The notes: a model not told the origin generated them from the letters alone. A stretch of DNA of 10,069 nt from Candidatus Undinarchaeota archaeon (GCA_964636545.1 CAZWSR010000007.1:1-10069), one strand, 5' to 3'. Positions 1 to 9,846 are shown, counted from the first letter of the stretch. Translations and numbers: made by a program.

Positions 1-2
1 AA

Positions 3-731
3 TGGTCTGTTGACGAGGCTCTCAGTAATTCATCAACTCCAATAACAAACCGAAGACCGGTTCTTGTATGGAACAACTCAACCGACACTGACGGGGATGC
101 ACTAACTTACGAGCTTGTGATTGACAATGATGCTGATTTCAGCAGTCCTGAGGTAAATGTCAGTGGTCTTGACAACACAACTCTTGACAACAGTACAAAT
201 TACACTTCAGTTCTAGAAGCAGATGTTGATGATGTTCACGTCTGGAAAGTTCGTGCCTGGGACGGCACTGTCTGGGGACAATACAGTTCTCCTTGGTGGT
301 ATGAGGTACAGTCTTTAGTTGCGATTTCCATGATTTACAACACTTCTGACTTTGGACAAATGTATGCGCCGCAAACCAATAACTCAATTGACTGGCCTCA
401 GCTTACTGGTAATCCAGTTATTTCAAATAACGGAACTTGCGACCTCAATGTCACAGTTACTGGAACTGATTTATGGGATACTGTCTCAAATCCAACAATA
501 AACTTCCAATACCAGACTGAAGTAAATCAAACAGATGCGTATCTTGAGGGTACTGAAGTCTGGACAAATGTGCCAGCTGTTTCCATTACAGACGATATTG
601 GCTGGTTACAGCACATAAATCTATCAAATGCTGTGAGCCAGGCAAATATCCACTTCAATGTTTCAGTTCCATATGCTGAAGTTGCTGGTGTAAAAACATC
701 AACAGTTACATTAACTGTGGAGAAATCATGA
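3..731 (+). CDS. 5'-truncated large extracellular protein: FN3/Ig-like domain followed by a C-terminal pilin-like beta domain (putative tip adhesin)
   Basis: The frame is open from base 3 (WSVDEALSNSSTPITNRRPVLVWNNSTDTDGDALTYELVIDNDADFSSP...), so the GTG at 117 is internal. PVLVW..STD.DGD.LTY...WKVRAWDG is an FN3-like pattern. The last ~140 aa share motifs with the three paralogs. Many N-X-S/T sequons and no C-terminal TM. Confidence 0.8.
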   Translation, partial: WSVDEALSNSSTPITNRRPVLVWNNSTDTDGDALTYELVIDNDADFSSPEVNVSGLDNTTLDNSTNYTSVLEADVDDVHVWKVRAWDGTVWGQYSSPWWYEVQSLVAISMIYNTSDFGQMYAPQTNNSIDWPQLTGNPVISNNGTCDLNVTVTGTDLWDTVSNPTINFQYQTEVNQTDAYLEGTEVWTNVPAVSITDDIGWLQHINLSNAVSQANIHFNVSVPYAEVAGVKTSTVTLTVEKS

Positions 732-1594
732 AAAGTAAAACAGGTATCAGGTATCAGGTATCAGGCATCGGTTCCCGATGGTTGAAAATTACATTAATCG
801 TAGCAGTGCTTCTAATAGCTCTTCCAGCTCAAGCTTTTGCTCTTGGCATATCTCCTGGAGAGCGTGTTATTAAAAATCAGCCAGGTAAAACCTTTGAGTA
901 TGTTGGTCTTATTGTAAACAATGAATACAAAGATATGACAGTTAATCTTGAAGTTGGCGGCGACCTTAAACAATTTGTTAGTGTTGAACCAAAAGAATTG
1001 AATTTTACTCGTGAAGAATCTCAAAAAACATATATTGTTCAGGTTCTTGTTCCATTTACAATTGAGCCAGGACAAAACCTTGGTTATATTCTTGCAAGCG
1101 AAGAGCCAGAAGCGCAGGAAGGGGAAATGAAAATAAGCACAACTGTTGCTGTAAAAAGCAGAATTGTCATTGCGTCAAATGAAACAGAAGAAAAACAAAA
1201 TGTTCTTGAAAAAGTGGATGCTGGTGATGGCGTACTTGAAACAGAATCTGGACCAAGAACAACTGGGCTTGTTGTTGGAAAAGAAAGTAGAGCAGGTCTA
1301 TTCCAGAACAAAATGGTTGGAATAATCCTCTTAATCTCTGGATTATTAATAATGGGTGGTTTGATGCTTATTGGTGTAAACTATCAAAAACAAGCAAGTC
1401 AAGTGGCTGTAAAGAAAAAAGAAGAAAAACGAGTTCAAAAACAAGTTACAGCTCAAGAACAGCTTCTTGCACTTGAAGATTATATTCAAAAATGCAGAAA
1501 TCGCGGAATAAGCAAGGAAAAAATCAAAGCAAGGCTTATCCAGGAAAAATGGGATGAGAAGGTCATTAATAAGCTATTGAAGCGCGCAAGTTAA
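728..1594 (+). CDS. Secreted, membrane-anchored Ig-like protein (DUF916/pilus-chaperone-like N-domain, C-proximal TM, small cytoplasmic helical domain)
   Basis: ATGA overlap with the upstream stop. Signal peptide ...LPAQAFA|LGISPGERVIKNQPGK, TM MVGIILLISGLLIMGGLMLIGV, tail LEDYIQKCRNRGISKEKIKARLIQEKW. Family assignment is by motif resemblance only. An in-frame TTG at 782 is a possible alternative start. Confidence 0.7.
   Translation: MKSKTGIRYQVSGIGSRWLKITLIVAVLLIALPAQAFALGISPGERVIKNQPGKTFEYVGLIVNNEYKDMTVNLEVGGDLKQFVSVEPKELNFTREESQKTYIVQVLVPFTIEPGQNLGYILASEEPEAQEGEMKISTTVAVKSRIVIASNETEEKQNVLEKVDAGDGVLETESGPRTTGLVVGKESRAGLFQNKMVGIILLISGLLIMGGLMLIGVNYQKQASQVAVKKKEEKRVQKQVTAQEQLLALEDYIQKCRNRGISKEKIKARLIQEKWDEKVINKLLKRAS
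741..768 (+). repeat. Heptamer tandem repeat (CAGGTAT)x3 + CAGGCAT in the 5' end of CDS 728-1594
   Basis: Read directly: caggtat caggtat caggtat caggcat. Confidence 0.9.
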
Positions 1595-1595
1595 G

Positions 1596-1614
1596 CGTAA
1601 GGTATATATAAATA
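1596..1614 (+). promoter_or_regulatory. Archaeal BRE/TATA promoter for the pilin-like trio
   Basis: cgtaagg followed by TATATATAAATA about 30 bp upstream of ATG 1642; no SD sequence. Confidence 0.65.
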
Positions 1615-1641
1615 GGAATAAACATACAATAACATATCCTA

Positions 1642-2322
1642 ATGAAACAAAAATTAGAAACTAAAAAAGTAGTACTTGCTCTTGTTGGACTTATTCTATT
1701 ATCATTCTTAGGCACAGCTGCGTATTTTTCTTCCGTTGGAAAATTACAATTTAGCTTTTCTCCTACTGGTTTTGCTAGTGAAGGTTTTGTATCTGCAGAT
1801 ATTGCAGGAACAACTGCTATTGATGTTGTTGACACCCAAATCAATTTATCAACTACAATTGACACTGCTGGAGATGCTAGTGCTTATGTTGCTACAAATG
1901 CAACAAGTGCCACTATCAACAGTTTTGATAATGTTTCTAATGAAAATTGGTTGAACAGAACAGGTGCTGAGGCACGTTTAGTTGAAAAAGACAATCTTAC
2001 AGTTAATAACACTGGTTCAACAATAGCAAACATAACTCTTTCCTCAAATTCTACTCCTACCACATTTTTCGGTGTTGGCGGCGGCAATTTCTGGGTCAAA
2101 ATCACTAACGGTACTGACAATGCAGCTGGCGCTGGTTGTACTCAAATCCAAAAAGGTTCTTGGGTAGAATACAGCACTAATACAACTAATCTGTGTGGGA
2201 TGCTCCCAACATTTGACCTAAACGATACAATCGATCTATGGATTCAGTGGCAAGTTCCTGCTGCTGCAATTGCTCGTGTTTACAATAGCACTTTAACAAT
2301 AAGTGCAACACAAGCATCTTGA
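1642..2322 (+). CDS. Secreted pilin-like beta-rich glycoprotein, paralog 1
   Basis: 226 aa. N-terminal basic plus hydrophobic segment, SPTGFASEG motif, two Cys, 12 N-X-S/T sequons, C-terminus WQVPAAAIARVYNSTLTISATQ shared with the paralogs, no C-terminal anchor. Confidence 0.8.
   Translation: MKQKLETKKVVLALVGLILLSFLGTAAYFSSVGKLQFSFSPTGFASEGFVSADIAGTTAIDVVDTQINLSTTIDTAGDASAYVATNATSATINSFDNVSNENWLNRTGAEARLVEKDNLTVNNTGSTIANITLSSNSTPTTFFGVGGGNFWVKITNGTDNAAGAGCTQIQKGSWVEYSTNTTNLCGMLPTFDLNDTIDLWIQWQVPAAAIARVYNSTLTISATQAS
1802..1952 (+). repeat. 151-bp exact direct repeat, copy 1 (copy 2 at 3108-3258)
   Basis: Base-by-base comparison shows identity from ttgcaggaacaactgct... to ...gaaaattggtt. Confidence 0.93.
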
Positions 2323-2329
2323 TACTAAA

Positions 2330-2971
2330 ATGAAAGAAAAAACATCAATACTAATAATTGCCCTTCTTGCAGTGGCTGTACTAGGGATTGCAATGCATTT
2401 CCGAATTTCACCTACTGGTCTTGCTAGTGAGGGGTTTGTAACTGCTAATGTTGCAGGTACTGTTGCTATTGATGTTACTGATACTCAAATCAATTTATCA
2501 AAAAATATAGATGCTGACGAAGATGCTAGTGCGTATGTTGCTACAAATGCTACTAGTGCTGAAATTGATAGTTTTGCTAATGTTTCTAACCAGAACTGGT
2601 TGAACCGGACTGGTGCTGAAGCACGTATAATTGATCCAGATAATTTATCAATTAACAACACAGGAACTGTCTATGCTAACATAACTTTTGCTGCAAATGC
2701 TTCACCTACAACTATTTTCGGTGTTTCTGGTGGAAATTTCTGGTTTAAGATGACTAATGGTTCTGAAATAACTGCGGCTTGTGAAGGTATTCAGGCAGCA
2801 GCCTGGACTGAATACAGTACTAACACTAGTGATGTTTGTGAAGAATTACAAACCTTGGACACAACTGATGTTATTGATATTTGGATCAAGTGGCAGGTTC
2901 CTGCTGCTGCTATTGCACGCGTTTACAACAGTACTTTGACAGTTAGTGCAGCTCAGTCCAATTGGGAATAA
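2330..2971 (+). CDS. Secreted pilin-like beta-rich glycoprotein, paralog 2
   Basis: Start reassigned to ATG 2330 (MKEKTSILII..., 213 aa), 7 bp after the paralog 1 stop. SPTGLASEG motif, two Cys, 11 sequons, same C-terminal motif. Confidence 0.8.
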   Translation: MKEKTSILIIALLAVAVLGIAMHFRISPTGLASEGFVTANVAGTVAIDVTDTQINLSKNIDADEDASAYVATNATSAEIDSFANVSNQNWLNRTGAEARIIDPDNLSINNTGTVYANITFAANASPTTIFGVSGGNFWFKMTNGSEITAACEGIQAAAWTEYSTNTSDVCEELQTLDTTDVIDIWIKWQVPAAAIARVYNSTLTVSAAQSNWE

Positions 2972-2977
2972 GATATA

Positions 2978-3637
2978 ATGGCGCAATCATCTAAAACCTC
3001 AATAATCATAATAGTTTTGCTAGCGATTGCAGTTCTAGGTATTGCAATACAGTTCAATCTTTCTCCTACAGGCCTTGTTGCTAGTGAAGGGTCTGCAACT
3101 GTTGAGGTTGCAGGAACAACTGCTATTGATGTTGTTGACACCCAAATCAATTTATCAACTACAATTGACACTGCTGGAGATGCTAGTGCTTATGTTGCTA
3201 CAAATGCAACAAGTGCCACTATCAACAGTTTTGATAATGTTTCTAATGAAAATTGGTTAAACAGAACTGGTGCAGAAGCACGATTAGTTGAAAAAGATAA
3301 TCTTACCGTAAACAATACTGGCACAACTATGGCCAATATAACTCTTGCTGCAAATGCTACTTCTGCTGCTGTTTTCGGTGTTGCTGGTGGCGATTTCTGG
3401 GTTAAAATAACTAATGGTACAGACAATAATGCAGCTTCTGGTTGTGAACATATTCAAGCAGCGGGCTGGACCCAGTACACTATACAAATTACAAACACTA
3501 CTGATTTATGTGGAAAACTTCCATTTTATGACGGAAATGACACAATTGACTTGTGGATTCAGTGGCAGGTTCCTGCTGCTGCAATTGCTCGTGTTTACAA
3601 CAGCACTTTAACAATAAGTGCGGCTCAGTCAGAATAA
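2978..3637 (+). CDS. Secreted pilin-like beta-rich glycoprotein, paralog 3
   Basis: 219 aa, 6 bp after the paralog 2 stop. SPTGLVASEG motif, two Cys, 12 sequons after the TG motif, same C-terminal motif. Confidence 0.8.
   Translation: MAQSSKTSIIIIVLLAIAVLGIAIQFNLSPTGLVASEGSATVEVAGTTAIDVVDTQINLSTTIDTAGDASAYVATNATSATINSFDNVSNENWLNRTGAEARLVEKDNLTVNNTGTTMANITLAANATSAAVFGVAGGDFWVKITNGTDNNAASGCEHIQAAGWTQYTIQITNTTDLCGKLPFYDGNDTIDLWIQWQVPAAAIARVYNSTLTISAAQSE
3108..3258 (+). repeat. 151-bp exact direct repeat, copy 2 (copy 1 at 1802-1952)
   Basis: Identical to 1802-1952, offset 1306 bp. Confidence 0.93.
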
Positions 3638-3647
3638 TTAATCTTGA

Positions 3648-3660
3648 CAATCTTTATAAA
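3648..3660 (+). promoter_or_regulatory. TATA box (caatcTTTATAAA), probable leaderless transcript
   Basis: TTTATAAA at 3653-3660, centred about 26 bp before ATG 3682. Confidence 0.6.
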
Positions 3661-3681
3661 CTGCTAAAGAATATTACGATT

Positions 3682-4827
3682 ATGCGCAAGTTTGTTTTGC
3701 TATTGTCAGCACTTCTTTTTCTTCTAGCTATGGCTGGATGCGCACAAGCAATAATGATTGTGCCTGCTAGAACAAATATTGAATATCAACCTGGCGAAAT
3801 CATTCAATTATCTTTTGGAGTTGGACAGTTTGGCGAAGGCATGGGTTATGAAGTTGATTTTCAAGGAGAATATACAGAAAATGCTCGAATTATTAAAGAA
3901 GATTCCAATAGCATACTTGTTGAATTCACAATGCCAGAAAACGCAAGGCCTGGTCAACACGAGCTCAAAGTTGGGGTAGCTCAGGCGCAAAAAGGCGGTT
4001 TTAGAACTGATGCAATTTCTGCCCGTGCAGCTGTTTATTCACAAGTAAGATTCTTTGTCCCTTATCCTGCAAGATATGCTGAAATCTCAATAGATGATGT
4101 GGATATTGCTATTGGGAAAATGGCATTTTTCACTGTCAATTTACATAATTACGGAAAAGAAATGCTTAATTCAATAAAAGTAAATGTATCTATTTTTGAT
4201 AATCTCAATCAAACAATTGCGATTGTTCCATTATCTGACCGTAGTAGTTTATATTCACTTCAGGCAACTGAACTCTTTGCACAATGGGGTAGTGAGAATT
4301 CCTCTGCTGGAATATACCGAACTGTTGCACAAGTTGATTATGACGGAATTGACGCCACCACAGAAGGACAGCTCAGAGTTGGAACAATGACTATTAACAT
4401 AAACAGCATACGGGCTATTGGTAATGTGCAAAGCGGGATTGTTAAAATAAATGTTGATCTGTCAAGTTTATGGAATGAAAAACTTACTGGGGTTTATGTA
4501 ACTGGAGAAATCACAAAAGATGGTGCAGTTATGGCTAATATGAAATCTGCTACAACTGAACTCCAATCCTGGGATAGTACAACTCTTGTAATGTATTGGG
4601 ATGTTTTGAATCTTGATGTTGGAATTTATGACATTGATGTGAAATTATATTATGCAGATAAAGTAAAAGAAACTGAAACTCAAATTTACTTAATGGAAGA
4701 AGAAGCAATTTCTGAAGATACAACCGTAAACACAATGTTGTATGGTGCTGTTCTTCTTCTAATACTCGCTGTTATCTTCCTTGCAGTTGTGGTTCTAAAA
4801 ACAAAGAAAGGAGATTCAGATGAATAA
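3682..4827 (+). CDS. Secreted multi-Ig-domain membrane-anchored protein (DUF916/DUF3324- or chaperone-like)
   Basis: Start reassigned to ATG 3682 (381 aa). Signal peptide MRKFVLLLSALLFLLAMAGCAQA|IMIVPARTNIEYQPGE, about three beta domains with G.Y/H...V strands, C-terminal TM plus KTKK. The N-domain resembles that of CDS 728-1594. Confidence 0.72.
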   Translation: MRKFVLLLSALLFLLAMAGCAQAIMIVPARTNIEYQPGEIIQLSFGVGQFGEGMGYEVDFQGEYTENARIIKEDSNSILVEFTMPENARPGQHELKVGVAQAQKGGFRTDAISARAAVYSQVRFFVPYPARYAEISIDDVDIAIGKMAFFTVNLHNYGKEMLNSIKVNVSIFDNLNQTIAIVPLSDRSSLYSLQATELFAQWGSENSSAGIYRTVAQVDYDGIDATTEGQLRVGTMTININSIRAIGNVQSGIVKINVDLSSLWNEKLTGVYVTGEITKDGAVMANMKSATTELQSWDSTTLVMYWDVLNLDVGIYDIDVKLYYADKVKETETQIYLMEEEAISEDTTVNTMLYGAVLLLILAVIFLAVVVLKTKKGDSDE

Positions 4828-5212
4828 TAAAATTCTTATTATTGCCGGAATCGTTGTTCTTGTTGCAGTTGGTATTTTTTATTTTAGTCCCTATGCTATG
4901 GTTGAACATGACATGTATTTGACTGTTGAATATGATAATGTTGGAATAAATGTTGATACTGATGCTGTGTGGTTCGGTGGTGTTGTGCAAGGTGGCGCAA
5001 GTATGCGTCCTGTAATCTTGACATCTTCTCGTGATTCCAAAGTAGTAGTCAAAGCTAAAGGAGAATTTGCAGAATGGGTCTCTGTTTCTCAAAATAATTT
5101 TAAAATAAAAGCAGATGAGCCATTTGAAGTTCAAGTAAAAGCACATGTCCCACAAGATGCAGAATTAAGAAATTATGAAGGTACTGTTGTGTTCTACTTC
5201 TTCAGGGATTAA
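4820..5212 (+). CDS. Small N-terminally anchored single Ig-like domain protein (possible minor pilus component)
   Basis: 130 aa, 8-bp overlap with the upstream gene, AAGGAGA at 4808-4814. N-terminal TM, motifs AVWFG and VPQDAELRNYEGTVVF. Confidence 0.72.
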   Translation: MNNKILIIAGIVVLVAVGIFYFSPYAMVEHDMYLTVEYDNVGINVDTDAVWFGGVVQGGASMRPVILTSSRDSKVVVKAKGEFAEWVSVSQNNFKIKADEPFEVQVKAHVPQDAELRNYEGTVVFYFFRD

Positions 5213-5221
5213 TAAGAATAC

Positions 5222-5231
5222 TATATATAAG
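5222..5231 (+). promoter_or_regulatory. TATA box upstream of the PGF-pre-PGF gene
   Basis: TATATATAAG 31-40 bp upstream of ATG 5262. Confidence 0.5.
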
Positions 5232-5261
5232 TGAAAAATTATAGAAATAATACTTAAACCC

Positions 5262-6908
5262 ATGAAACTGCCAAAGGAAATAGACATCCGAACCGCTATT
5301 GTTCTATTTATTCTAGCTGTTGTCCTAACTATTAGTGGAGCTTCAATTCTATTTGGAAGATATTCTAAAGACAGTTCTGCAACTGGGTATGCTTCTGTTG
5401 GTTCAGTTGGCCTCAGTTTTGCAAAACCAGCTGATGATGGTGATGATGAAGATGAAGAGGAAGAAGCACCACCAGAAGGTCCACCTGGGCCTGGTAGTGT
5501 AGGTGGCGCCGGAGGCGGCGGAGGCGGAGGTGGTGGCGGAGGAAGTGGTGGCCCTGGTGGCCAGCCAGCTCAAATTCTCCGATGGCAGGAACAATACCCT
5601 ATCTTAACTAAAGGAGATAACAAGAATATTATTCCAGCACCAAATGTCAAGACTCCAATAGAAATAATCACATTTGATCTTCCAATGGATGTAAAAGATG
5701 TTGTTGTTAAAGTAAGGAATTATGGTTTTGCTGGAGCTTTTGTAAATAAGCCATTCAGTGTTAATGAAGCACCTGGTGTGATTTACAGTTATTCTGAAAT
5801 TGAATTTATAAATCTTGAAGAAGGCGTTGCAACTGAAATCTGGCTCAAATTTAAGGTTGAGCGTGAGTGGATAAATGATAATCGTATTGGGGAAGATACT
5901 GTAGTTTTGTACAGATTCCATGACAAGAAGTGGGATTCACTTGAAACAATTCAGACTGCAAAATCACCAGAATTCATTCATTACAAAGCAAAAACACCTG
6001 GTTTCTCTGTTTTTGCTGTATCTGGTTCTGTTAGTAAAACTGGAATGCACTTAATCTTTGAACCAAATATTTCAATACAACGTGGCGAAACACAGTTGCA
6101 TACAATAATTGTTGAAAATATTGGGGAAGTTGCACTTTCAAATGTTGCTTTGTCTGTTCAAGAAACACTTTTTGAAACAAAATTCACACCAGAATCAATT
6201 GCAGAACTGCCTGTTGCATCAAAAGGGACTTACTTGTTTAATCTTAAAATCCCTGAAGAAGCCAGCCCTGGAACTTATCAATCATCTATTCTTGTAAAAG
6301 CTGATGAAGGATCAACTGAGGAATTCTTTGATATAATCATCCCCTCCACTGCAAAACCAACAGCAGAAGCGCTTCTTTCAGATCAAATCAGTAGTTTGAA
6401 ATCAACAGCAAACAAGCTATGGCTTGAGTCACAATGGGTTGGTCTTCGTGGTGGAAACGTGAGTGCTGTATTTGACTTAATTACTGATTCAAAAGAAAAA
6501 CTTGCAATTGCACATGATAATTTTGGAATGGTTGGGCTTGAAGAAACTCGTGCTTATACTGAAGGTGCAAGCACTGACCTTGAAAAAGCAGTTATCAAGC
6601 TCGCAGAACAACAGCCTTATTTAAGCATTTTCAAAATGTCTCCCGTTCTTATTGGTTTCATTGTTCTTGTCCTACTTGTTGTTGGATTCTTGAGCTACAA
6701 AGGTTTGCACAAGTTTGAGAAAACAGTTAAAGAAAGTAAGAAAGTTGCTCGTGGTGATGCGAAAATGGAAGTTGTTGTTAAAGAAACAAAGAAGTCAAAT
6801 CTTGGCAAACAACTTGCCCTTGTTGAGGAAGCATATCACAAAAAGCATATTTCAAAGAAGATTTATGATGCAGAGAAAGCGCGGCTAAGGAAGAAAATGG
6901 GGAAATGA
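5262..6908 (+). CDS. PGF-pre-PGF domain-containing membrane-anchored surface protein
   Basis: 548 aa. FKVEREWI...VVLYRF..KKWDSLET...YKAKTPGFSVFAVSG is a typical PGF-pre-PGF domain. Also an N-terminal TM plus ATGYAS, a D/E-P-G linker, a CARDB/NEW3-like Ig domain (VENIGE...PEEASPGTY), a helical region, a C-terminal TM and a SHOCT-like tail. Confidence 0.85.
   Translation: MKLPKEIDIRTAIVLFILAVVLTISGASILFGRYSKDSSATGYASVGSVGLSFAKPADDGDDEDEEEEAPPEGPPGPGSVGGAGGGGGGGGGGGSGGPGGQPAQILRWQEQYPILTKGDNKNIIPAPNVKTPIEIITFDLPMDVKDVVVKVRNYGFAGAFVNKPFSVNEAPGVIYSYSEIEFINLEEGVATEIWLKFKVEREWINDNRIGEDTVVLYRFHDKKWDSLETIQTAKSPEFIHYKAKTPGFSVFAVSGSVSKTGMHLIFEPNISIQRGETQLHTIIVENIGEVALSNVALSVQETLFETKFTPESIAELPVASKGTYLFNLKIPEEASPGTYQSSILVKADEGSTEEFFDIIIPSTAKPTAEALLSDQISSLKSTANKLWLESQWVGLRGGNVSAVFDLITDSKEKLAIAHDNFGMVGLEETRAYTEGASTDLEKAVIKLAEQQPYLSIFKMSPVLIGFIVLVLLVVGFLSYKGLHKFEKTVKESKKVARGDAKMEVVVKETKKSNLGKQLALVEEAYHKKHISKKIYDAEKARLRKKMGK
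5433..5561 (+). repeat. Low-complexity acidic / Pro / poly-Gly coding tract
   Basis: Encodes DDGDDEDEEEEAPPEGPPGPGSVGGAGGGGGGGGGGGSGGPGG; a run of GGN codons. Confidence 0.85.
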
Positions 6909-6966: not shown

Positions 6967-7302
6967 ATGCCAGAAGCAACAAACACACAACCAGATAGCA
7001 CTCCTGCACCTAAAACCGAAACTCCAAATATGGTTGTTTCAGGATTAGAGCAAGAGCTAAAGAAGCTCCAGAACAAGATGTCATTTACAAAGGGCAAAAT
7101 AACAAAATTGGAGAATGAAGAGGGTGGACTACACTCTCAAATAGCAAAACTCCAAGATTCTATTAATAGCACTCAAGACAAAATTGCTAATGACCAGCTC
7201 AAAGAAGAAGAGCTTAGTGATGAAATAGCAAAAATGCGTGACCAAATGGTCTCAATTAAGAAGATTCTAGCAGAATACGAGAGTGTTGGAACATCAGATT
7301 AA
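6967..7302 (+). CDS. Hypothetical coiled-coil protein
   Basis: 111 aa with RBS. Pro/Thr-rich N-terminus, then a continuous heptad pattern (LEQELKKLQNKM...ITKLENEE..LHSQIAKLQDSI...). Confidence 0.8.
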   Translation: MPEATNTQPDSTPAPKTETPNMVVSGLEQELKKLQNKMSFTKGKITKLENEEGGLHSQIAKLQDSINSTQDKIANDQLKEEELSDEIAKMRDQMVSIKKILAEYESVGTSD

Positions 7303-7361: not shown

Positions 7362-8903
7362 ATGAATAAGAAAATTCTCAAGGAAATCCTTGATCAAGTA
7401 ATGATAGAGCGTCCTACTGACAAACGATTCAGATTAATAAAGCGGAGCATAGCGAAAAAATACAAGGTTTCAATACCTAGACATTATGATCTTTTCAAAG
7501 CAGCTAATAAAAAACAACAGAAAGCACTACATTATCTGCTTTTCAAGAAGCCAACTCGCTCACTTTCTGGTGTTTCAATTGTTGCTGTAATGTGCAAACC
7601 ACACAAATGTCCGCACGGAACCTGCATGTACTGCCCAAAAGGCAAAGAAGCTCCTCAAAGTTATACTGGTGATGAGCCAGCAGCTAGAAGAGCAAGAGCA
7701 AACAAGTTCAATGCAATTAATCAAGTGAAAAATCGCCTTGATCAAATCAAAAACTCAGGTCATCCAACTGACAAACTTGAATTAATTATAATGGGTGGCA
7801 CTTTCCCAAGCATGTCCTGGCAATATCAGAAGAATTTTGTGCGAGATTGTTTAAATGCGATAATCGGGGCGACGGGGCGCCGTGGAGACGGGGCGGCGAA
7901 ATATAGGACTTTAAAATCAGCACAAAAAGCAGCTGAAACCTCGTCAAAACGTCCAGTTGGCCTTACAATTGAGACTCGTCCTGATTATTGCAAAGCAAAG
8001 CATGTAAAAAGAATGCTGAGCCTAGGTGCAACTCGCGTTGAGCTTGGTGTTCAGACAACTTATGATTCAATTTTTAAGAAAATTCAGAGAGGTCACACTG
8101 TTCAGGATGTTATTGATGCAACTAGAATTGCAAAAGATGCTGGATTGAAAGTTCTTTATCACATGATGCCTGGTTTGCCTGGTTCAACTACTGAAAAAGA
8201 CCTTGCTTCTTTTAAAAAAATATTTACTGACAGCAAATTCATGCCAGATATGATAAAAATTTATCCAACTTTAGTGATTTCTGGAACTGAACTTTACAAA
8301 GAATGGAAAAAAGGCAAATACAAACCACTAGACTCAGCACAAGCAGCTAAACTTCTTTCAAAAATTAAGAAACTTGTCCCTCCTTGGGTTCGCATAATGC
8401 GTGTTCAGCGAGATATTCCAACAAATTTAATTGCAGCAGGTGTTCAGCATAGTAATTTGAGGCAATTAGCAAAAGCAAAATGTAAATGTATTCGTTGCAG
8501 GGAAGTTGGACATCAACTTAGACAAGGAAACGTGCCAGAAAACATAAAAATCAAAACAAAAAAATATTTTGCATCTGGCGGAACAGAGTATTTCATCTCA
8601 GCTGAAGATTTTGAAAAAGGAATATTGATTGGATATTTGCGACTAAGAAAAACTCCAACTAAATGGATTGTGCGCGAACTTCATGTCTATGGAACAGAAG
8701 TAAAAATCGGAAAAACAGCTCAAAAAACCGCAATGCAGCATCGCGGTTGGGGTAGGAAATTATTAGAAAAAGCTGAAGAACTTGCTGACAGCAAATTATA
8801 CATCTTAAGCGGAATTGGTGCTCGGGAATATTACAGGAAATTCAATTACAAATACAAAGAACTGTATATGGTAAAATCTCCACAATCTATAAATAACACT
8901 TAA
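7362..8903 (+). CDS. elp3: Elp3 tRNA uridine(34) acetyltransferase (radical SAM + GNAT)
   Basis: KPTRSLSGV, CPHGTCMYCP Fe-S motif, PQSYTG.EPA, MGGTF, TIETRPD, TRVELGVQT, HMMPGLP, KIYPTLV, RVQRDIP, CIRCREVG, VRELHVYG, QHRGWG, SGIGAREYY. Confidence 0.97.
   Translation: MNKKILKEILDQVMIERPTDKRFRLIKRSIAKKYKVSIPRHYDLFKAANKKQQKALHYLLFKKPTRSLSGVSIVAVMCKPHKCPHGTCMYCPKGKEAPQSYTGDEPAARRARANKFNAINQVKNRLDQIKNSGHPTDKLELIIMGGTFPSMSWQYQKNFVRDCLNAIIGATGRRGDGAAKYRTLKSAQKAAETSSKRPVGLTIETRPDYCKAKHVKRMLSLGATRVELGVQTTYDSIFKKIQRGHTVQDVIDATRIAKDAGLKVLYHMMPGLPGSTTEKDLASFKKIFTDSKFMPDMIKIYPTLVISGTELYKEWKKGKYKPLDSAQAAKLLSKIKKLVPPWVRIMRVQRDIPTNLIAAGVQHSNLRQLAKAKCKCIRCREVGHQLRQGNVPENIKIKTKKYFASGGTEYFISAEDFEKGILIGYLRLRKTPTKWIVRELHVYGTEVKIGKTAQKTAMQHRGWGRKLLEKAEELADSKLYILSGIGAREYYRKFNYKYKELYMVKSPQSINNT
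7865..7898 (+). repeat. GC-rich degenerate octamer tandem repeat within elp3
   Basis: cggggcga cggggcgc cgtggaga cggggcgg cg; encodes GATGRRGDGAA. Confidence 0.8.
8883..8895 (+). promoter_or_regulatory. Possible TATA box overlapping the elp3 3' end
   Basis: caatcTATAAATA 27-34 bp before ATG 8922; resembles 3648-3660. Confidence 0.45.
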
Positions 8904-8921
8904 TCTTTAAATCCAATTGTA

Positions 8922-9305
8922 ATGGCTATTCCAAAAAATGTGCAATCAGTTCTAACTAAACTTAAAAAAACCTCAACTGATGTTGCGCAAACTTGTATTT
9001 CAGAAGTTGAAAAATCCTTTCAAGGTAGTGGGTTTGATGACGCCCGTCTCTGGGCAAAAACTGCACTTCACACCATAATCGGCGAACTTGGTGATGTTGA
9101 AGATGATCTTGACCTTGAACAAATGGCAATGCAGCTTGACGGTTTTGAACGCGGAGCAGTAGAAGCATTTTATGAAGTTTTCACTAATATTCAAGATGAA
9201 TTACATGATGTTAATCCAAGCGATATTCGAGATACTCTAGTTTATTCAATAATGGAAACACTTGATCAGCAAGATAAGAAAAATTATCAAGGTCTTTATG
9301 GTTAA
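8922..9305 (+). CDS. Hypothetical acidic, probably helical protein with a C-terminal HbYX-like motif (LYG)
   Basis: 127 aa, D/E-rich, ends QGLYG; collinear with its neighbours. Confidence 0.75.
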   Translation: MAIPKNVQSVLTKLKKTSTDVAQTCISEVEKSFQGSGFDDARLWAKTALHTIIGELGDVEDDLDLEQMAMQLDGFERGAVEAFYEVFTNIQDELHDVNPSDIRDTLVYSIMETLDQQDKKNYQGLYG

Positions 9306-9313
9306 TTTTATAA
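9306..9313 (+). promoter_or_regulatory. Possible TATA box
   Basis: TTTTATAA 24-31 bp before ATG 9337. Confidence 0.45.
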
Positions 9314-9336
9314 TCTAATACTTCGTATTCTTTTTA

Positions 9337-9846
9337 ATGAAAGCTCAAACACATGTTGCAGGTGCAGTTCTTTTTGCAATAGCGCTAGCAAAAGCAGGAA
9401 CGGTGGTAATAACTGGACACGGTTATCTTTTATTTGCATTATTTGGTTCACTTCTTCCAGATATTGACAATCACAACTCCAAAATTGGTCAAAAACTTCC
9501 TGGATTCTCTCGTCTTGCAGAATTTCTAATGGGACATAGGGGAATTTACCACAGTTTTTTTGGCTGTGCAATAACTTTATTTGTATTCTTCGGAATTTTC
9601 AAAATATTTTCAATATCTGCTTGGCAATGCTACCTTGCAGCAATTGCAATTGGTTTCTTATCTCACCTTGTTTTAGATACAATAACAACAAAAGGAATTC
9701 ACTGGTTCAAGCCAATTTGGGGATTGTGGATCCGCGGTCCATTTAACACTGGCGGTTGGGTTGACACTGCATTTTCAGTTGCATTTTTGATCTTAGTTGG
9801 TTTTGTGATGAAAGGAATGGGAATTGGTGTTTTGCGGTTAATTTAG
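9337..9846 (+). CDS. YdjM-family membrane-bound metal-dependent hydrolase
   Basis: N-terminal TH, GSLLPDID, HRGIYHS and SHLVLDTITTKG motifs; several TM segments. Confidence 0.9.
   Translation: MKAQTHVAGAVLFAIALAKAGTVVITGHGYLLFALFGSLLPDIDNHNSKIGQKLPGFSRLAEFLMGHRGIYHSFFGCAITLFVFFGIFKIFSISAWQCYLAAIAIGFLSHLVLDTITTKGIHWFKPIWGLWIRGPFNTGGWVDTAFSVAFLILVGFVMKGMGIGVLRLI

Follow-up and report, generated by a model that had tools for sequence, protein, structure and literature searches.

What do the eight consecutive genes at the start of this contig build, and how would a fibre be assembled from their products in the absence of an usher? The genes lie on the + strand between positions 3 and 6908 of a 10,069-nucleotide stretch of DNA (hereafter the window), which is the start of contig C7 in the 840 kb, 83% complete genome of a DPANN archaeon (Candidatus Undinarchaeota). 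Their open reading frames (ORF1 to ORF8: 3-731, 728-1594, 1642-2322, 2330-2971, 2978-3637, 3682-4827, 4820-5212 and 5262-6908) are separated by intergenic gaps of -8 to 49 nt, and the nearest named record with the same operon is another Ca. Undinarchaeota record (L027), whose ORF6 ortholog is 64% identical. Our analysis indicates that the operon most probably builds a chaperone-assisted, usher-less donor-strand pilus. The original prediction, made from the window, had assigned the genes to an adhesin, three pilins, two membrane-tethered chaperones, a minor subunit and an anchor, and each of these roles is now backed by profiles, models, fold matches and topology. Its description of the products as eight consecutive exported beta-rich proteins needs amending: the eight ORFs are in place, but ORF1 is cut by the contig start, so that its export signal lies on contig C19, and ORF2 and ORF8 are only partly beta, the remainder consisting of linkers, helical parts and cytoplasmic tails.

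The evidence begins with the pilins. Pilin 1 (ORF3; 1642..2322, +) has an N-terminal transmembrane (TM) helix, a TG motif at 1765, a donor strand at 1783-1803 and an incomplete immunoglobulin (Ig) domain with a conserved cysteine pair, the protein as a whole having 12 N-glycosylation sequons; in pilin 2 (ORF4; 2330..2971, +) the motif lies at 2414 and the strand at 2432-2452, and in pilin 3 (ORF5; 2978..3637, +) at 3068 and 3089-3109. Identity to the first paralog is 63-73%, and each of the three consists of a single N-terminal hydrophobic helix, then SPTG[FL], an alternating strand and a body that ends in VPAAAIARVYNSTLT. The N-terminal strands SEGFVSADI, SEGFVTANV and SEGSATVEV and the terminal VPAAAIARVYNSTLT reported earlier are all present, with the exception that pilin 2 ends in ...LTVSA and not ...LTISA, and the paralogs do lack a C-terminal hydrophobic helix and, read by eye, a class III signal, in contrast to the type IV pilins on contig C1. 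In sequon density the three rank 3, 5 and 6 among the 895 ORFs of the genome. No Pfam or NCBIfam family covers them, there being 0 meaningful matches for 52 family members, and sequence searches of the PDB with the pilin and chaperone profiles matched no pilin or chaperone. At a fixed position, a donor pattern G/A-x-h-x-h-x-h is found in 63 of 75 family pilins vs none of 25 adhesin pilin domains; the stricter form G-x-[VAIF]-x-[LVIF]-x-[IVL] occurs in 51 of the 75 (shuffled mean 5.8, maximum 13), and by column the consensus reads T-G-x-[VA]-x-[VLI]-x-[VI]. The alternation of the N-terminal strand is not due to chance. It was also observed that pilin bodies are 61-84% identical within a genome vs 38-58% between genomes, with leaders that follow orthologs (65-72% between genomes; window, L017 and L018), and that pilins 1 and 3 share 151 identical bases (window 1802-1952 and 3108-3258), a pattern which suggests homogenisation of the bodies by gene conversion, or recent duplication with leader retention.

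The adhesin carries the same domain without the strand. ORF1 (3..731, +) is its C-terminal end and comprises a domain which we label FN3-like, followed by a pilin (acceptor) domain at ~300-728 that has no donor strand; it matches the pilin profile at positions 50-206 (E 1.9e-10), and profile comparison of the pilins with the adhesin tail gave a probability of 99.8%. Contig C19 overlaps window positions 1-55 exactly and holds a 2,386-aa ORF open at its end; the joined adhesin of ~2,610 aa has one TM helix, a TG motif and four LamG domains. The donor pattern is absent from all 25 adhesins in the loci of relatives, and in the phylum that contains Woesearchaeota the pilin profile also matches open frames of 1,000-6,200 aa over their final 150 residues, from profile position ~47-49, i.e., past the donor strand. 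Several giant adhesins (L075:42-280; L020, L021 and L053) begin with a conserved basic cytoplasmic segment, YKKY...GKK.GPYYY.S.R, ahead of the TM helix, for which there was no Pfam match at E<=0.001. In relative G002 (L018) the assembly breaks within the adhesin at the same base as the contig of this genome, and this shared break could mark a branch in the assembly at which one pilin tail is joined to alternative adhesin payloads. In L030, L037, L063, L076 and L077 the adhesin is followed by a 154-174-aa single-TM protein; it is not present in the window and, by eye and where read, resembles the FN3-like domain of the adhesin.

A third class of parts combines a donor strand with a membrane helix. 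The minor subunit (ORF7; 4820..5212, +) is a reduced pilin-like protein with an N-terminal TM helix and a donor-like strand and no TG motif. Its family profile aligns with the pilins over donor and first strand (probability 91%) and with the chaperone N-domain (97%), and because of this second likeness its role is the least certain; it would probably remain in the membrane and serve as base or terminator. The anchor (ORF8; 5262..6908, +) has an N-terminal TM helix, a TG motif at 5382, a donor strand at 5400-5420, an acidic/glycine linker and a C-terminal TM helix, and contains a PGF-pre-PGF domain at 5643-6026 (TIGR04213, E 5.6e-23) followed by an Ig and a helical region. In L020 (11585-13306), L068 and L070 a single fused protein comprises minor subunit and anchor, and the TG/SG motif and donor strand are internal to it. 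In most relatives (L019-L021, L031-L070 and L076-L078) a 60-100-aa peptide made of one TM helix and one or two donor strands is found just upstream of the pilin; it is absent from the window and its two congeners. Among 36 distinct short membrane peptides chosen without a motif filter, all single-TM and directly upstream of pilins, 30 have the donor pattern (mean 1.5 and maximum 6 after shuffling). A fibre with tip, shaft and base requires parts of three kinds, acceptor-only, donor-plus-acceptor and donor-plus-membrane, and these are what the motifs predict here.

The remaining two genes encode the putative chaperones. Chaperone B (ORF6; 3682..4827, +) has a signal peptide (mature start ~3751), three Ig domains, which were modelled at a predicted local distance difference test (pLDDT) value of 89.1, a predicted donor hairpin strand at 4000-4044 and a C-terminal TM helix, the last being present in 64 of 64 chaperones of the family. 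Chaperone A (ORF2; 728..1594, +) has a signal peptide, one chaperone-type Ig domain (836-1177) that matches the N-domain of the ORF6 family (E 3.3e-15), a TG motif at 1262, a TM helix and a cytoplasmic tail. In relatives a chaperone stands within two genes after the adhesin in 20 of 25 cases, and ORF2 is probably dedicated to the adhesin. At E<=0.05 members of the ORF6 family gave weak matches to the Pfam domains WxLIP_HBD (9 of 38, best 1.5e-6) and WxLIP_PGBD (4 of 38, best 1.1e-4), and WxL-chaperone domains came up at 0.85-0.87 as leads only. Mature pilin 3 and the ORF6 ectodomain were predicted to form a complex with a score of 0.62, as against 0.01 for the best of three controls; of 157 solved complexes 116 attain the mark used for such predictions, as do 2 of 215 mismatched pairs, a rough guide here as custom alignments were used. 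The runs agreed in at least 97% of contacts, with a partner pLDDT of at least 86. Chaperone residues 84-98 and 1-7 contact pilin residues 173-182 and 10-24; pilin residues 1-9 are not among the named contacts. The contact pairs 177:94, 179:96 and 182:98 (pilin:chaperone) ascend together, i.e., the chaperone strand runs parallel to the last strand of the pilin. As a prediction, the model supports binding of the pilin by ORF6, and a parallel strand is the signature described for the chaperones of chaperone-usher and Elr pili in the accessible text on the latter (10.64898/2026.10.17.759780).

The predicted fold of the pilin fits this picture. In the model (pLDDT 84.6) a helix at residues 7-32 is followed by residues 33-59 outside any sheet and then by a beta-sandwich, so that by prediction the pilin is an incomplete Ig domain that bears a donor extension at its N-terminus; a self-complete Ig fold was looked for and is not what the model has, its N-terminal strand being unpaired. 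The top five of 48,161 chains in the fold search were Hyper2 (Z 7.1, root-mean-square deviation 3.4, 120 aligned), cannula (6.5), AbpA (6.3), TasA (6.2) and TLP-1b (6.0), the last of which we take to be a donor-strand filament as well, and FimG (Z 6.3) and CsuA/B (Z 6.2) tie with them. Donor-strand filaments thus rank first, and not S-layer or type IV pilin folds. With Foldseek there was nothing at E<=0.001, and a TasA fibre came first at 0.014. The neighbours of the pilin in the ESM Atlas are mainly Nanobdellota/Woesearchaeota clusters without a Pfam family, and WxL at 0.82 and a Peptidase_M73 (TasA-family) cluster at a template modelling score of 0.49 are leads only.

The range of the family was addressed by profile searches. 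A search of 1.84 billion representatives identified 50 proteins, mostly of 185-240 aa, with the same leader-TG-strand layout. With a 52-sequence pilin profile, matches were found in 10 of 13 genomes of the archaeon's own order (this genome included), in none of four genomes of other order(s) in its phylum, and in 24 other archaea twice strongly and twice marginally. The same profile matched 80 of 151 genomes of the phylum containing a Woesearchaeota record (L031), which we take to be Nanobdellota by GTDB placement and from which some of the 52 sequences themselves probably come, and 2 of 61 genomes in the class of relative G030, where a pilin homolog split over two frames was also seen (G050:C11:80902-81425). 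A 75-sequence profile matched 6 of 41 genomes in the phylum of relative G021, and 0 of 41 and 0 of 17 in the phyla of G025 and G024, two sets that held no positive control. Strong matches for the pilin and for the chaperone mark one and the same set of 12 genomes out of 41, and two further genomes have weak partial chaperone matches.

The synteny survey across DPANN genomes shows that the genes are co-conserved. Loci were taken from 36 of the 80 positive genomes (20 in listing order and 16 picked among strong matches), with G112, G118, G121, G128 and G137 left out for weak or single matches; one locus has no called pilin, which leaves 35. Within 6 kb of the pilin a chaperone is present in 34 of the 35 (the exception is at a contig end), a minor subunit in 29, an adhesin in 15 and two chaperones in 12. 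Typically the adhesin comes first, followed by chaperone A, the strand-only peptide, the pilin(s), chaperone B, the minor subunit and often a TM-TG-strand anchor; this order is fixed in four or more phylum-level groups. When 38 loci are clustered, the recurrent neighbours include no usher, ATPase or peptidase. In the genome at its 83% completeness there were no matches to the usher (PF00577, at E<=1, with a control that matches in E. coli), to sortase (PF04203), to exosortase/archaeosortase (PF09721) or to the WxL domain (PF13731), and the WxL domain is likewise missing from all 52 pilin family members. It was stated earlier that the window has no usher, sortase or type IV pilus ATPase; this is correct for the window, but a separate type IV pilus locus with ATPase, platform genes and class III pilins lies elsewhere in the genome, on contig C1 (30000-38000).

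A feature absent from the original prediction is a conserved TG[FYL]A motif immediately before the donor strand. In the form TG[FYLMAHR][AV] it comes after the helix in 48 of 75 pilins (2.1 on average and at most 8 upon shuffling) vs 0 of 37 minor subunits, and it is also found after the helix of adhesins with intact starts and inside fused minor-anchor proteins. The site lies a median of 10 residues beyond the helix (range -4 to 20). G-x-A agrees with the -3/-1 rule of signal peptidase I, and 10 residues from the helix is far for a standard signal peptidase site. A single signal peptidase I is encoded in this genome, as in each of its pilus-bearing relatives; here it is a TIGR02228 match on contig C3 (C3:65614-65868). 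Since a TM helix followed by TG is also seen in secreted proteins outside the operon (C1:61159-61443 and C2:32670-35834), the motif may be a wider DPANN export or processing mark. The genome also holds a prepilin peptidase A24 (C1:144882-145763) and a presenilin-type signal-peptide peptidase (C1:9382-10281); the latter enzyme and signal peptidase I are candidates for leader processing or clearance.

Assembly can be pictured as follows. All parts would be exported by Sec, and each pilin would emerge as an Ig-like sandwich without its last strand. The tethered chaperones would fill the pilin groove with a strand of their own, modelled as parallel to the terminal strand, ORF6 serving the shaft pilins and ORF2 probably the adhesin. 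As the LamG adhesin can only accept a strand, it would begin the fibre and come to sit at the tip. Pilins would then join from below, each one driving out the chaperone with its G-x-V-x-V-x-I strand, and the membrane leader would be removed at or near the TG motif, the simplest candidate for this step being the single signal peptidase I of the genome. Growth would stop when a subunit that keeps its membrane helix donates the last strand, which would be ORF7 and/or ORF8 here and a 60-90-aa strand-only peptide in many relatives. Neither an ATPase nor a pore would be needed. The lectin domains of the glycosylated fibre would be displayed to glycans on a host cell or surface, and of these uses we lean towards host attachment specifically.

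Several observations weigh against a chaperone-built pilus. No filament has been seen. All pilin fold scores lie below Z 8, no Foldseek match reached E<=0.001 and generic ASH/MSP Ig domains attain 5.2-5.9; because of these values it is the enrichment for donor-strand pilins which outweighs any single fold match. In Pfam, neither WxLIP nor PapD is matched by ORF6 or ORF2 of the window itself, and PapD_N is not among 25 of the 26 Pfam families listed for 38 chaperone-family members. The fold search with whole ORF6 returned generic tandem Ig proteins, as its second and third Ig domains fill the results, with a WxLIP structure at rank 49 (Z 9.9) and no PapD-family chain among the best 50 matches listed. 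The complex score, obtained with custom alignments, may reflect likeness to solved chaperone-pilin structures. The adhesins carry a W-x-F-x-I strand in the donor register, which is read as the end of the preceding FN3-like domain, a motif upstream of it being present in 24 of the 25. Finally, among the recurrent neighbours no processing enzyme is co-conserved with the locus, and no extra signal peptidase paralog was found.

This last point bears on the rival explanation that survives best, one that we nevertheless consider unlikely. Strands would be lent as proposed, the leader would stay uncleaved, and the tethered pilins would form a short stalk or surface lattice, a membrane-held platform which displays the giant adhesin. 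The distance between helix and TG motif, the presence of TG inside fused minor-anchor proteins, and a single signal peptidase I with no peptidase recurring in the loci would all suit such a platform, whereas the distribution of the motif would not: it marks the parts that must leave the membrane, i.e., pilins and intact-start adhesins, and is missing from the minor subunit. One to three paralogous pilins with homogenised bodies fit an abundant shaft protein. Moreover, WxL clusters were likewise taken for static platforms until cryo-EM revealed fibres, according to the accessible text of the report on them (10.64898/2026.10.17.759780).

A second alternative, which we regard as improbable, is a chaperone-free fibre of the TasA/AbpA/cannula type, in which the pilins self-assemble and ORF2 and ORF6 are merely nucleators or membrane anchors, like TapA. 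The four best fold matches of the pilin (Hyper2, CanA, AbpA and TasA) point that way, as does the Peptidase_M73 lead in the ESM Atlas, yet FimG and CsuA/B tie with those matches within 1 Z unit. The modelled chaperone strand, parallel to the terminal strand of the pilin, argues for a chaperone proper, and a second chaperone after the adhesin in 20 of 25 cases is what subunit-specific chaperones would predict. TasA and Tafi loci have a dedicated signal peptidase (SipW and TafD, respectively), whereas there is none among the recurrent neighbours here. Very improbable, and largely refuted, is an ordinary S-layer or independently anchored surface glycoprotein cluster, or a set of minor type IV pilins for the contig C1 ATPase, for while the very high sequon density, a weak match (E 1.8e-4, well short of the cut-off) between ORF8 and a putative S-layer family, and the type IV system of the genome could be cited in its favour, there is no class III signal and no ATPase among the recurrent neighbours of 35 loci, the gene order is fixed in at least four phylum-level groups, and the donor strand is present or absent exactly as a tip-shaft-base order demands.

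Reading the operon as a chaperone-assisted pilus, we compared it with known systems; the preprints and the papers on archaeal filaments were accessible in part, and the comparison applies to their accessible text. The closest is the Elr/WxL pilus of Enterococcus faecalis and other Bacillota, to which it is reported to be confined (10.64898/2026.10.17.759780). It too has a TM-anchored chaperone that gives a parallel strand and a large tip adhesin which ends in a pilin domain, as do the 25 adhesins of our loci; the donor consensus is similar, [S/T]-x-[G/A]-x-[V/I]-x-F there and T-G-x-[VA]-x-[VLI]-x-[VI] here, and the DUF916-DUF3324-TM chaperone of that system has weak WxLIP counterparts in some members of the chaperone family, but none in ORF2 or ORF6 themselves. 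Unlike Elr/WxL, the archaeal operon has no WxL domain and no LPxTG or sortase, anchoring being via TM helices; its chaperone has three Ig domains (one in ORF2) and often comes in two copies, and it has the TG-motif leader, N-glycosylation sequons and a cysteine pair. The Pam pilus, reported as exclusive to bacteria of the candidate phyla radiation (CPR), is, by its description, likewise an usher-less donor-strand pilus of an ultra-small symbiont with a proposed part in host contact (PMC13278184). Two chaperones with a C-terminal TM helix are shared (ORF2 and ORF6 here), and the anchor PamR, with N-terminal strand and C-terminal TM helix, is like ORF8. Pam pilins, however, have two domains and donate an internal linker strand, whereas those here are single-domain and carry the strand at the N-terminus, and PamT forms the tip as a bare domain where a giant lectin is the putative tip here.

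Classical and archaic chaperone-usher pili (Fim, Pap and Csu) share the incomplete Ig pilin and the parallel chaperone strand, both predicted here, and the two-part tip adhesin; unlike them, the present system has no usher, no outer membrane and a membrane-bound chaperone with three Ig domains, not a soluble two-domain one of the PapD type. The early description of the operon as a monoderm, usher-less analogue of these pili is supported by gene set, donor pattern, pilin fold and predicted chaperone complex, with the qualification that the design has already been described for bacteria. By their defining domains, the operon is outside Elr/WxL (no WxL domain, LPxTG or sortase), Pam (no two-domain pilin) and chaperone-usher systems (no usher). 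Type IV pili have a class III signal and a linked ATPase and platform, neither of which is at this locus (pilins read by eye). Cannulae are reportedly chaperone-independent. The best fold matches (Z 5.1-7.1) are to TasA and to donor-strand filaments of archaea (cannulae/Hyper2, AbpA bundling pili, Tafi and threads), which have the N-terminal strand donation, glycosylation and independence from class III peptidase that are predicted here, and the accessible text on them describes no operon of giant tip adhesin, chaperone and anchor (PMC12337348; PMC9715654). Tafi is described there as chaperone-independent (PMC12337348), and the assembly machinery of threads as unresolved (PMC9715654). In the literature surveyed, which lies mostly outside subscription papers, neither an archaeal chaperone-assisted pilus nor this operon was found to be described; the supplements of the Elr and Pam preprints could list archaeal matches.

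Directly after the anchor, at window positions 6967-7302, there is a 111-aa coiled-coil protein without signal peptide, which may or may not be part of the operon; counterparts of 108-111 aa are found at the same position in the loci L017, L018, L020 and L070. The rest of the window (7362-9846) encodes ordinary neighbours: Elp3 (TIGR01211), a 127-aa protein without assignment and a YdjM-family membrane protein. Scans for sigma-70 promoters and for terminators gave results at chance level only, such models being ill-suited to archaea, and no RNA holder is listed for positions 1600-4900.

The operon belongs to a conserved system, widespread in DPANN, whose kind was described only in 2026 and for bacteria (Elr/WxL and Pam preprints). 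In the largest DPANN phylum searched, 80 of 151 sampled genomes carry the pilin family, as do 10 of 13 in the window's own order. Chaperone-guided donor-strand exchange, reported for Bacillota (Elr) or CPR (Pam), would thereby be extended to Archaea. Giant surface proteins without a C-terminal membrane anchor would have their display explained by the fact that they end in a pilin domain, and the lectin payloads of the adhesins are pointed to as host-range determinants. In the cultured DPANN archaeon Nanobdella, filaments of undefined make-up and lectin-like proteins have been noted, again in the accessible part of the source (10.1101/2023.10.27.564410). More speculatively, and we would at present rather bet against it, a large part of the DPANN archaea might use such a chaperone-built pilus as the main organelle for recognising their hosts, with variable tip adhesins of 1,000-6,000 residues that set the host range, with tethered pro-pilins cut at a DPANN-specific TG signal only on incorporation, and with growth halted by peptides that comprise just one or two donor strands beside a membrane helix. 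Since E. coli can serve to rebuild the two-protein core, no culture of the archaeon is required. For the question of how DPANN archaea, few of whose hosts are known, find and hold them, the operon supplies a candidate, testable attachment structure.

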